4,936 nucleotides of DNA from a virus (lineage: Duplodnaviria > Heunggongvirae > Uroviricota > Caudoviricetes), in the IMG/VR virus record IMGVR_UViG_2645727676_000016; one strand, written 5' to 3'. This document shows positions 1,971-2,989 of the stretch, piece after piece. Numbering within the stretch: the stretch's first letter is position 1; each line of letters opens with the position of its first letter. The notes under the pieces are model-generated. The model worked only from the letters and a program-made list of their open reading frames with translations. It was not told the DNA's origin and searched no databases. Made by a program: the position numbers and the translations under genes.

Positions 1971-2675
1971 ATGTCCATTCGTAATGAACACGAAATGATT
2001 GTTGAGAACAGACCAAGTGCACTTGATATTCACGAATTAACTTTGCGTGAATCTTTTGATAGAGCTTGGCGGGAATCGCACGAAGTAAATAAAGGTCCAT
2101 ATATTCCACCAGAACCAATCGAGATTCCAAGAGTTGAAATTGATTTTTCGATGAATGAGGAATGTGAGCTTGATTTGAAACTGAAGCTGCAACGCAAATA
2201 TTTCAAAGACCTTCGAGACTCTCAAGAAGCAATGAGAAGTGTTTACGAGAAAATTCAGTCCAAGCTTGAAGACGAAATTGACGAAATGGCTATTTTGATG
2301 GAGCTTCAAACCAATTCTTATGCTTATTTCTCTCGACTAGACCGTGATGGTTGGGGGTATGACCCTGTAGAGATTGGTAAAGTGATTGCAGATTTACCAG
2401 AAGGTCAAAGAGTTGTTCGTACAGAAAGAGCCATTAGAGCACCACATCGACTGTCTCTAATTGTTGCTGATAAATCACAAGCTGAGCTTGAAGAAATTGC
2501 CAAAGAGAAACTGATGAAAGCAAGAGAAAATGAGATTAATTTGCTGAAATCAAGACTGGCTAAGCTGATTAGTGACCATCAAGCGCTGGCTAAGGAGTAC
2601 CGTCAAGAGTTGGCACAGATTATCAGCTTCAATGATTTTCTGAGTGTTCCACGAGAATTTAGCAAGGCTGTTTAA
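1971..2675 (+). CDS. hypothetical acidic protein (234 aa) with coiled-coil-like C-terminal third
   Basis: ATG 1971 with AGAGGA at 1957-1962 (8-nt spacer); 234 codons to TAA 2673-2675; longest complete ORF in the window. Highly charged product; C-terminal stretch KSQAELEEIAKEKLMKARENEINLLKSRLAKLISDHQALAKEYRQELAQ looks heptad-like. No catalytic motif recognised. The antisense ORFs overlapping it are treated as artefacts. Confidence 0.7.
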   Translation: MSIRNEHEMIVENRPSALDIHELTLRESFDRAWRESHEVNKGPYIPPEPIEIPRVEIDFSMNEECELDLKLKLQRKYFKDLRDSQEAMRSVYEKIQSKLEDEIDEMAILMELQTNSYAYFSRLDRDGWGYDPVEIGKVIADLPEGQRVVRTERAIRAPHRLSLIVADKSQAELEEIAKEKLMKARENEINLLKSRLAKLISDHQALAKEYRQELAQIISFNDFLSVPREFSKAV

Positions 2676-2697
2676 TTATGCATATGTGAGGTGATGA

Positions 2698-2913
2698 ATG
2701 ATTGATTTAACAGAACGCTATGAAACTATTAAGTCTGTTTGTGAAAACTTAAAGTTACAAACTAAGCCAGCCTTAAGAATTAAAACCAAACATCAAATTA
2801 TCACCTCACGCAAACCAAAAACACGCAAGATTCCAAAATGGTGTATCGACCGTATTCCTTCTGATGCTCAAATCATAGGTGAAACGGAACTACATTATCT
2901 TGTCAGGCATTAA
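2698..2913 (+). CDS. small basic hypothetical protein (71 aa)
   Basis: ATG 2698 with GAGGTG at 2688-2693 (4-nt spacer, on the short side); 71 codons to TAA 2911-2913. Lys/Arg-rich middle (TKPALRIKTKHQIITSRKPKTRKIPKW). No recognised family. Confidence 0.5.
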   Translation: MIDLTERYETIKSVCENLKLQTKPALRIKTKHQIITSRKPKTRKIPKWCIDRIPSDAQIIGETELHYLVRH

Positions 2914-2947
2914 TTTGAGATTAGCTTCTAATCGAATCTATAACACG

Positions 2948-2989
2948 GGGAGAGATTATCGATATTATTCGGTAGTTTCTCCCTTTTTT
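2948..2989 (+). terminator. strong candidate rho-independent terminator
   Basis: Left arm 2948-2962 (GGGAGAGATTATCGA) pairs with right arm 2969-2983 (TTCGGTAGTTTCTCCC region): 15 bp as RNA (12 Watson-Crick plus 3 G-U), GC-rich at the base, 6-nt loop TATTAT, then TTTTTT at 2984-2989. Starts 35 nt after the stop of the 71-aa gene. Confidence 0.6.

Follow-up and report, generated by a model that had tools for sequence, protein, structure and literature searches.

The closest described counterparts of the locus analysed here are the PLEs, islands of Vibrio cholerae that carry a large serine recombinase and are parasites of the lytic myophage ICP1 (PMC12987554). All PLEs carry genes for a tape measure protein (TMP; tmp) and a tail chaperone (tac), some also carry a baseplate hub gene, and the tails that result are chimeric, with the TMP and the hub of the satellite in place of those of the helper phage (PMC12987554). 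In PLE11 an 80-amino-acid (aa) protein without recognisable signature, Rta, blocks the helper TMP by way of a 73-aa region, and PLE11 escapes with its own TMP; moreover, a small RNA of the PLEs, SviR, binds the helper transcripts for the tail chaperone and for the hub protein BhuB (PMC12987554). Here we describe a stretch of 4,936 nucleotides (nt), filed in IMG/VR as the virus record IMGVR_UViG_2645727676_000016 and called the window in what follows, in which two genes for proteins of 234 and 71 aa (the cassette) stand next to a TMP gene. We find that the window is part of a chromosomal integrative island and not of a phage, and that this island has the appearance of a satellite of Felix-O1-type lytic myophages (Ounavirinae), or at the least of an element that specifically antagonises them. 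By analogy with the PLEs we propose that the 234-aa and 71-aa proteins are accessory factors of the chimeric-tail module of a PLE-like satellite, a reading to which we assign a probability of about 0.35.

The exact 234-aa protein is encoded on many Escherichia coli chromosomes and always within one type of compact element, about 11.3 kb in size (layout in Table 1). A match is present in 481 of the 5426 complete E. coli genomes, always on the chromosome (E. coli strain 20, NZ_CP064847, is one of the carriers), and there are at least four insertion sites (yciI/tonB, msyB/lpxL, one on the wrbA side and one on the yecE side); the island copy that is 99.7% identical to the window lies between yciI and tonB. 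The recombinases of the different site classes are 28-36% identical to one another. An earlier note on this stretch had taken the surroundings of the cassette for a phage structural region, which they are not: the setting is an island of about 11 kb, whose only virion genes are those for the TMP and a tube initiator. Genes for capsid, terminase, portal, lysis or replication functions cannot be recognised in the island, its proteins match none of the PADLOC defence models, and at the nucleotide level the window has no match in phage records apart from the start of the TMP gene. One contig from a public run (L017; Logan contig SRR22802630_1010, 11,280 nt) begins and ends within the TMP gene and has an exact terminal overlap of 27 nt, from which we deduce a circular form of the island of 11,253 bp, seen once, with the junction of the circle between the recombinase gene and the 221-aa gene. 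We rejected the possibility that the element is a defective prophage remnant, since the same compact architecture is found at several sites with different recombinases and is under purifying selection. A full-text literature search, whose coverage falls short of all journals so that a prior description is possible, found no description of the island or of either protein. This suggests an apparently undescribed, satellite-like island that combines a partial tail module with two protein families without known function.

The link to a helper comes from the tail genes and from a non-coding segment. Judged by sequence, the TMP and the tube initiator of the island are related to those of Felixounavirus. 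The TMP matches phrog_4036, the Felixounavirus TMP family, with an E-value of 5e-84. Overall it shares about 30% identity with the TMPs of this family; it is 29% identical to the TMP of phage garuso and 83% identical to it over the first 30 residues, both proteins have the C-terminal motif LLSSS[FY]PE, and nucleotides 3080-3164 of the window are 86% identical to garuso. In windows of 30 residues the core of the island TMP is 0-50% identical to the phage TMP, while the termini are kept. The earlier note had placed the start of this gene at 3074; the ATG at that position meets a stop codon and the actual start is at 3081. The island TMPs of E. coli (682-725 aa as compared to 735 aa in the phage; copies L002-L018) are 44-57% identical to one another, while the first 30 or so residues and the C-terminal tip are conserved and phage-like, which suggests that the core of the protein is under diversifying selection or is frequently replaced. 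The tube initiator ('Dit-like') is 80% identical to garuso gp119 overall and 97-100% identical over residues 27-176, its gene is 93.5% identical to that of garuso over 521 nt, and in garuso the gp119 gene likewise lies directly 3' of the TMP gene. Cryo-electron microscopy of phage Bas63 has identified the product of the gene after TMP as the tube initiator of the baseplate hub, which also holds the tip of the TMP (PMC12609058).

In addition, a non-coding segment of 115-134 nt in the region of the island that is free of open reading frames (ORFs) has 73-79% identity (E-values down to 2e-17) to part of the large non-coding region in Felixounavirus and Mooglevirus genomes. Most island variants, distant ones included, have this segment, and the gene-free region that contains it in the phages is about 1.7 kb long and lies within 1 kb of the record ends in many phage records. 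The segment may mimic a cis-acting site of the helper, such as a pac site, a terminal repeat or an origin. It is the combination of Felixounavirus-related genes, shared non-coding segment, recombinase and circular form that gives the island the look of a satellite, and it is the restriction of its virion genes to copies of two adjacent Felixounavirus genes that points to these phages as its helper or target.

The resemblance to the PLEs is architectural. In both cases a small chromosomal island with a large serine recombinase is tied to a lytic myophage and carries only a partial tail module, in which the TMP and a protein at the level of the baseplate hub have diverged from those of the helper, and in both cases small unrecognisable proteins are found beside this module. 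The regulatory RNA SviR, too, has a possible parallel, in a leader loop of the island that is complementary at 15 of 15 positions to the ribosome-binding region of the helper TMP gene. The island differs from the PLEs, however, in its host, which is E. coli and relatives, in the lineage of its presumed helper, the Ounavirinae, and in its size (about 11.3 kb as compared to about 18 kb). Whereas the PLE has an HK97-type chaperone, the island has at that position two unrelated proteins that show no co-variation with the TMP, and whereas BhuB of the PLEs shares 41% identity with the corresponding helper protein, the tube initiators of island and phage are almost identical. No capsid-remodelling, replication or nuclease genes are recognisable in the island. 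Putative satellites of E. coli have also been described by Barth et al. 2023; these are chromosomal elements that carry a putative TMP and a baseplate component, lack most tail genes, and in a subset have a serine recombinase (PMC10055350). However, they encode RepA_N initiators, a major capsid protein and a decoration protein, none of which is present in the island, they mostly have tyrosine integrases at tRNA genes, and they are linked to Stephanstirmvirinae, whereas the tail genes of the island derive from Ounavirinae. We have set this satellite type aside for its different gene content and helper subfamily, and the Tai systems (PMC11364771) because there is no basis for homology.

Both ORFs of the cassette are genuine, conserved genes. 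As the earlier note had stated, each has a Shine-Dalgarno site of its own, seen on reading the sequence as AGAGGA (1957-1962) 8 nt 5' of the ATG of the 234-aa gene and as GAGGTG (2688-2693) 4 nt 5' of that of the 71-aa gene. The description of the smaller protein as basic is borne out by its predicted isoelectric point of 9.80, while the larger one is acidic in a mild sense only (isoelectric point 5.20; 46 D+E against 36 K+R). The ratio of nonsynonymous to synonymous substitution in the 234-aa gene, calculated against five diverged copies, is 0.19-0.33 and thus indicates purifying selection. Homologues of its product are extremely rare, with a search of 1.84 billion proteins giving 12 clusters at 50% identity, and those of full length reach down to 21% identity. 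For the 71-aa protein there are 117 clusters of homologues at 90% identity, all from Enterobacteriaceae and none with a functional name, and alignments of these proteins reveal a conserved C-terminal half (KIPKWCIDR[IV]PSDAQI[IV]GE..HYLV). The earlier note recognised neither protein, and the databases searched give no function to either: no family was found in PHROGs, Pfam, NCBIfam or PADLOC, and profile searches with these and the other small island proteins gave only sub-threshold coiled-coil noise (DUF7384, CEP63, Tup_N) and a weak DndE-like match of a 92-aa protein. A tblastn search of 50,697 phage records with the 234-aa, 71-aa and 185-aa proteins returned no match, and a sequence search of the PDB with the profile of the 234-aa family again returned coiled-coil noise only.

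In every locus examined the cassette lies directly 5' of the TMP gene and in the same orientation, and this position is shared by all relatives examined, down to 21% identity. The homologues of the 234-aa protein with 44%, 25% and 21% identity are each followed by a small gene, the TMP gene, the tube initiator gene and the recombinase gene; for the 37% homologue, whose contig ends inside the small gene, only the upstream neighbours could be checked. Divergent homologues of the 71-aa protein show the same gene arrangement, and the 71-aa gene stands immediately 3' of a gene for 233-249 aa in the loci examined, with the exception of L013. In this locus an extra ORF of 91 aa (L013:10697-10972) lies between the 231-aa gene and the true 71-aa orthologue, which the gene caller had missed.

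This constancy of place goes together with a mobility of the cassette relative to its neighbours. Seven loci that encode the same 234-aa protein were compared, with a nucleotide identity of 99.7-100% for the gene in the three loci whose DNA was checked. Next to this shared allele stand TMPs that are 44-57% identical in six of the seven copies and 93% identical in the remaining one, together with recombinases of 28-36% identity. In L015 the reverse is seen: its recombinase is 90% and its TMP 58% identical to those of the window lineage, yet its 234-aa homologue is only 25% identical. On these comparisons the cassette behaves as a recombination module, universal yet freely re-assorted relative to the TMP.

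The arrangement of expression signals suggests that the cassette and the tail genes are read together. The only conserved sigma-70 promoter, which is also the best promoter match in the window, stands 5' of two terminator hairpins and is separated from the 234-aa gene by about 430 nt of structured RNA. It reads TTGACA-17-GATGAT in the window and TTGACA-17-CATAAT with a preceding TG (TGnCATAAT) in most relatives; no change is seen in its -35 element TTGACAA or in the spacing, not even in the distant islands L013, L015 and L018, and a 23-nt promoter core is found at the same relative position in 17 loci. Neither a promoter scan nor reading of the sequence revealed a site on the + strand in 1857-1970. 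The earlier note was right in seeing a terminator-like hairpin upstream of the cassette, at 1710-1732 plus T-run, to which a second one at 1810-1856 is to be added that is found in all leader variants listed, including those without the first. It was equally right about a strong intrinsic terminator downstream (folding z-score -5.2), which all nine islands aligned have retained and whose stem differs in sequence in L005, L013, L015 and L018. The conserved terminator agrees with its view of the cassette as a promoter-to-terminator unit, whereas no promoter-like site is seen on the + strand in 1857-1970 and the conserved promoter lies 5' of the upstream terminators. In L009, L010, L015 and L018 the ribosome-binding site of the TMP gene follows the downstream terminator within about 25 nt or less, which leaves no room for a promoter. 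Since the TMP gene thus begins so close behind it in several relatives, the downstream terminator is most likely an internal attenuator of one operon and not the end of an autonomous unit. Terminators as such are not enriched in the whole window, where 5 were counted and 3.1 +/- 1.9 expected.

Just 5' of the downstream terminator lies a recurrent short hairpin motif with the sequence GAGATAG(A/G/T)(T/C)TCTATCGAATC, which the window has at 2918-2941 as GAGATTAGCTTCTAATCGAATC. Its copies in other island variants stand after the downstream terminator or 5' of the 107-aa gene (L004:10960-10985, L015:9177-9212), and a terminator of phage Mijalis (L028:3163-3188) contains it as well, with 85-92% identity over 26-36 nt.

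The leader itself is conserved in structure. Its stems compensate between variants, as seen on comparing GGCCTTTCAG/CTGAGAGGTT of the window with GGCTTATTTAG/CTAAATAGGCC of L021; of 12 leader pairs predicted by RNAalifold 4 have changed in both partners, and the small hairpin accounts for 3 of these. In the long hairpin just 5' of the 234-aa gene both partners of 7 out of 29 pairs have changed in a compensatory way between two leader types. The apical loop of this long hairpin contains CTCTTCTAAG, which is complementary over 10 nt to the ribosome-binding region of the 234-aa gene, CTTAGAAGAG (1951-1960). Leaders of type 2 have a different yet still complementary pair of loop and Shine-Dalgarno sequences, TTCACCTCT/AGAGGTGAA, which pair in a register that differs from that of the other type. 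That both partners have altered and have nevertheless stayed complementary speaks for a leader that controls translation of the 234-aa gene. A search of the whole island against Rfam yielded no family for the leader and a single spurious match, to a plant miRNA, over the long hairpin. The candidate small RNA of about 195 nt that makes up the first part of the leader has antisense matches to the garuso genome at chance level. In its layout of constitutive-looking promoter, structured RNA and terminator the stretch 1543-1740 resembles the PR'-6S RNA-tR' region of lambda, or a small RNA like SviR of the PLEs.

What, then, might the two proteins contribute to the tail module? The AlphaFold2 model of the 234-aa protein is an antiparallel coiled-coil hairpin (helices 66-114 and 170-216), with a small alpha/beta insert (residues 121-166) at its tip that contains the invariant DGxG and LPEG motifs of the family; residues 1-60 are predicted with low confidence. 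With a shallow alignment of close relatives as input the mean confidence (pLDDT) was 54 and too poor, and with four distant homologues added it rose to 78, and averages taken over 10 residues lay at 89-97 in the part from residue ~70 to 210. In this model the fold loosely resembles prefoldin. Prefoldin and the 'jellyfish' holdase Skp have no sequence relationship to the 234-aa protein, however, and their fold scores are not set apart from generic coiled-coil matches (Foldseek E-values >1); Foldseek searches of BFVD and PDB with the model gave nothing significant. The earlier note had proposed homology and structure searches as checks, and these have placed the 234-aa protein in no known family.

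We base the proposed tail-accessory role on the logic which the island shares with the PLEs, given its Felixounavirus-related TMP and tube initiator. The fixed place of the cassette at the head of the tail genes, the lack of a recognisable chaperone in the island, the operon architecture and the loosely holdase-like shape of the 234-aa protein all suggest such a role. Transcription would begin at the promoter at 1510-1538 and cross the leader of about 430 nt with its one or two terminators; the loop of the long hairpin would mask the ribosome-binding site of the 234-aa gene, and the terminator after the 71-aa gene would pass only a fraction of the transcripts of this single operon on to the TMP and tube initiator genes. 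The 234-aa and 71-aa proteins would then act as a holdase or selector which ensures that the TMP and tube initiator of the island, and not those of the helper, seed polymerisation of the tube.

Are the two proteins tail chaperones of a known kind? They resemble the tail chaperones of lambda (gpG/gpGT) and of Felixounavirus (gp116/gp117, PF21822) in their position just 5' of the TMP gene in the same orientation, and in that the first product is acidic and helical. However, there is no homology, the cassette has no programmed frameshift, the first product is about 130 aa long in these systems as opposed to 234 aa in the island, and in the island an intrinsic terminator stands between the pair and a TMP with which it does not co-vary. 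BLASTP comparison of the 234-aa and 71-aa proteins with garuso gp116 and gp117 gave E-values of 1.3 or worse, no XXXYYYZ slippery heptamer was seen on reading 2640-2675, and no homologue of PF21822 was found among the island proteins. With BLASTP and hhalign both negative we rejected homology of either protein to the Felixounavirus tail chaperones. Several of our results in fact weigh against a tail-accessory role: the hhalign probability for a match between the profile of the cassette family and that of the Felixounavirus tail chaperones is 0.1%; the cassette proteins have no similarity to any Pfam or PHROG tail family; the two ORFs are 22 nt apart, each with its own Shine-Dalgarno site, and not in a frameshift arrangement of the G/GT type; and the structural model of the 234-aa protein was built on 14 sequences only. 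Finally, the cassette does not co-vary with the TMP across island copies, which is unlike what would be expected of a dedicated pair of chaperone and client, and unlike the tmp and tac genes of the PLEs, which cluster together (PMC12987554). This lack of co-variation fits better with a conserved partner, such as the N-terminus of the TMP or a protein of the helper, and thus keeps other explanations alive.

According to one of these, which is unlikely but deserves to be taken seriously, one or both proteins inhibit tail assembly of the helper in the manner of Rta, while the diverged TMP makes the island immune so that its own tails still form. A precedent is PLE11 Rta itself, a small protein without signature that acts on the helper TMP (PMC12987554), and tail-assembly blockers recur in mobile elements (Tai systems, PMC11364771). 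The strong divergence of the core of the island TMP, with the helper-docking termini kept, is in line with this explanation, as is the finding that the cassette is far more conserved than the adjacent TMP, which fits a conserved partner in the helper. However, rta lies outside the tail cluster, occurs in one PLE variant only and is expressed before infection (PMC12987554), whereas the pair described here is universal and heads the tail operon; the failure of PADLOC to match either protein also speaks against it. Alternatively, the pair could redirect capsid assembly of the helper to small capsids that fit an element of 11.3 kb, as do Sid of P4, CpmA/CpmB of SaPI and TcaP of the PLEs. With its 11.25 kb the element is about one eighth the size of the helper genome of about 86 kb, so that a change of capsid size would be advantageous, and the missing co-variation with the TMP is compatible with a capsid target. 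The 234-aa protein is modelled as a long coiled coil, and the known capsid-redirection factors, too, have helical or coiled-coil structures and comparable lengths (Sid 244 aa, CpmB 72 aa). Yet this is an argument by analogy alone, neither Sid, Psu, CpmA/B nor TcaP was among the sequence and fold matches in the PDB, and the strict place of the cassette ahead of the TMP and tube initiator genes points to tails; we consider a capsid role improbable.

Somewhat less probable still is a regulatory function, for instance of the 71-aa protein in opening the terminator before the TMP gene, be it by antitermination or as a transcription factor, or of the proteins as factors acting on helper expression. 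The location of the cassette between conserved terminators and behind an elaborate, conserved leader would agree with such a function, as would the small size and basic nature of the 71-aa protein and the high conservation of its C-terminal half, and the gene for this protein, placed just before a terminator that has to be read through for TMP expression, would suit a feed-forward switch. Then again, profile searches detected no DNA- or RNA-binding domain in either protein, and a coiled coil with a knob, as modelled for the 234-aa protein, is atypical for a regulator. The earlier note had taken the cassette for a moron, that is, for an independently transcribed accessory unit with a role in host interaction, exclusion or defence that is unrelated to the adjacent tail genes. 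The pair is indeed flanked by terminators, no database searched gives its products a function, and the notion of a separate unit survives in so far as the cassette moves between islands as a recombination block. However, setting and fixed position are unlike those of a moron: the pair is present in all relatives, the most divergent included, and its G+C content (0.36-0.40) matches that of its neighbours (island 0.34-0.47) with no compositional break. Moreover, no convincing promoter that would serve the pair alone was seen in the stretch from the upstream terminators to the ATG, the TMP gene has no promoter space after the terminator in some variants, and no PADLOC model matches, all of which makes a moron the explanation we find hardest to believe. 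The same note had named a conserved tail protein at this position in all relatives as an observation that would count against its view; the constancy of position was found, homology to a known tail assembly protein was not. Among these explanations we consider a tail-accessory role of the two proteins the most probable.

A more far-reaching version of this role takes the leader into account as well. The loop of the long hairpin (1894-1908, CTCTTCTAAGTTCGT) is complementary at all 15 positions to nucleotides 76994-77008 of garuso, 14-28 nt before the ATG of the phage TMP gene, and this target site is invariant in 21 Felixounavirus-like contigs of IMG/VR. The loop thus pairs over 15 nt with the phage site as compared to 10 nt with the ribosome-binding region of the island itself. 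In shuffled sequences a 15-nt antisense match to the initiation regions of four tail genes was obtained in 1 of 1000 cases and one anywhere on the + strand of the phage in 10 of 200, and a 14-mer scan for a phage target of the loop of type-2 leaders gave noise only. The match was noticed post hoc and could be explained by common ancestry of the two ribosome-binding regions, and we regard antisense pairing with the phage TMP transcript as a lead, not a finding. If it were real, leader, cassette, TMP and tube initiator might together form a new tail-hijacking system of an E. coli satellite of Felix-O1-type phages, a proposal that we put forward as speculative and, on present evidence, doubtful. 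In such a system the leader loop would silence translation of the helper TMP by antisense pairing, the pair of 234-aa and 71-aa proteins, unrelated to known chaperones, would load the island TMP onto the helper baseplate by way of the near-identical tube initiator, and only chimeric, island-type tails would reach completion.

Table 1. Features of the window and of the island to which it belongs. Plain positions refer to the window; positions preceded by an L number refer to the island or phage locus of that name.
Feature	Position	Strand	Basis or content
Sigma-70 promoter, extended -10	1510-1538	+	best promoter match in window
Structured leader / candidate ~195-nt small RNA	1543-1740	+	folding z-score -3.2
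Leader hairpins	1546-1566 (5'); ~1614-1634 (GAAAGGU/GCUUUUC); 1639-1664	+	fold
First upstream terminator-like hairpin	1710-1732 + T-run	+	terminator scan
Second upstream terminator-like hairpin	arms 1810-1822 and 1839-1851, then TTTTTT, to 1857	+	inverted repeat, minimum-free-energy fold
Long hairpin of the 5' untranslated region	1852-1940; 28-nt arms, ~31 pairs in fold	+	inverted repeats, fold z-score -5.0
234-aa protein gene	1971-2675	+	ORF
71-aa basic protein gene	2698-2913	+	ORF
Downstream terminator	2947-2984 + T-run, to 2990	+	16-pair stem, folding z-score -5.2
Tape measure protein gene	3081-4936, runs off window	+	PF20155 TMP_3 3e-19, phrog_4036 5e-84; 682 aa in full copy
Island left end			small resolvase and/or 221-aa gene; variable
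Island stretch without called genes	after left end		~1.5-2.5 kb
Shared non-coding segment	L012:6710-6843		phage matches e.g. L028:2501-2615, L027:2501-2626
Island small genes			184/185-aa gene, several small ones, often 95-aa HNH_3 protein, then ~107-aa gene
Island intergenic region	5' of 234-aa gene		450-560 nt, structured leader
Island tail end			234-aa gene, 71-aa gene, terminator, TMP gene (682-725 aa), 'Dit-like' tube initiator gene (~256 aa)
Large serine recombinase gene	island boundary	opposite to tail genes	Resolvase, Recombinase, Zn_ribbon_recom domains

Some further features of the island deserve mention. In the same island copy as the window, about 400-2960 nt upstream of the start of the window, a stretch of about 2.5 kb (L012:6039-8595) contains no ORF of more than 72 aa, and other island copies have 1.5-2 kb at this place that are likewise without called genes. 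The stretch includes a perfect 13-nt tandem repeat, GGTTAAGAAGGTC, in about 4 copies (7712-7761), a pair of 48-nt direct repeats, and divergent, strong promoter-like sites that face the 185-aa gene (L012:8480-8545). The 13-nt repeat resembles GTTAAGA / TTGTTAG boxes in the large non-coding region of phage Mijalis. We regard the stretch as a candidate for an origin, a packaging site or a long RNA. A motif of about 27 nt, AGAATGCG(T/A)T(A/T)(C/G)AGAGCGTCT(G/T)A(G/C)AAG, is found at 937-966 of the window and at L012:7034-7060 and L012:8307-8333, thus in at least three copies in the island and in both orientations. The 42 nt around one of these copies are 88-91% identical to non-coding DNA of T5-like Salmonella phages, and in some of the phage records the match lies within about 1 kb of the record end. 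Of the small genes in the window, an ORF at 644-931 encodes a 95-aa HNH_3 endonuclease-like protein (Pfam 1.8e-8) that is far shorter than typical homing endonucleases and is present in most island copies but not in all, being replaced in L006 and L007. Another, at 154-432, encodes a basic protein of 92 aa (isoelectric point 10.1) with sub-threshold DndE-like matches over residues 8-62 (TIGR03184, E 0.003; Pfam DndE, E 0.085), which may be a small DNA-binding regulator of the island.

Felixounavirus phages are widely used in the typing of Salmonella and E. coli, in biocontrol and in therapy. If the proposed role of the cassette is true, a compact and experimentally tractable counterpart of the PLEs, aimed at these phages, is present in about one in eleven complete E. 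coli genomes, and chimeric-tail piracy, so far seen with PLE and ICP1 only, would extend to the main model bacterium. Should the island instead be a non-mobile, decoy-type defence, this would likewise be a new use of tail proteins. As a tail-accessory module, the two new protein families, together with the candidate antisense RNA, would provide handles on how a satellite brings about the choice of its own tape measure over that of the helper, and the island may help to explain why strains differ in their susceptibility to Felix-O1-like phages.

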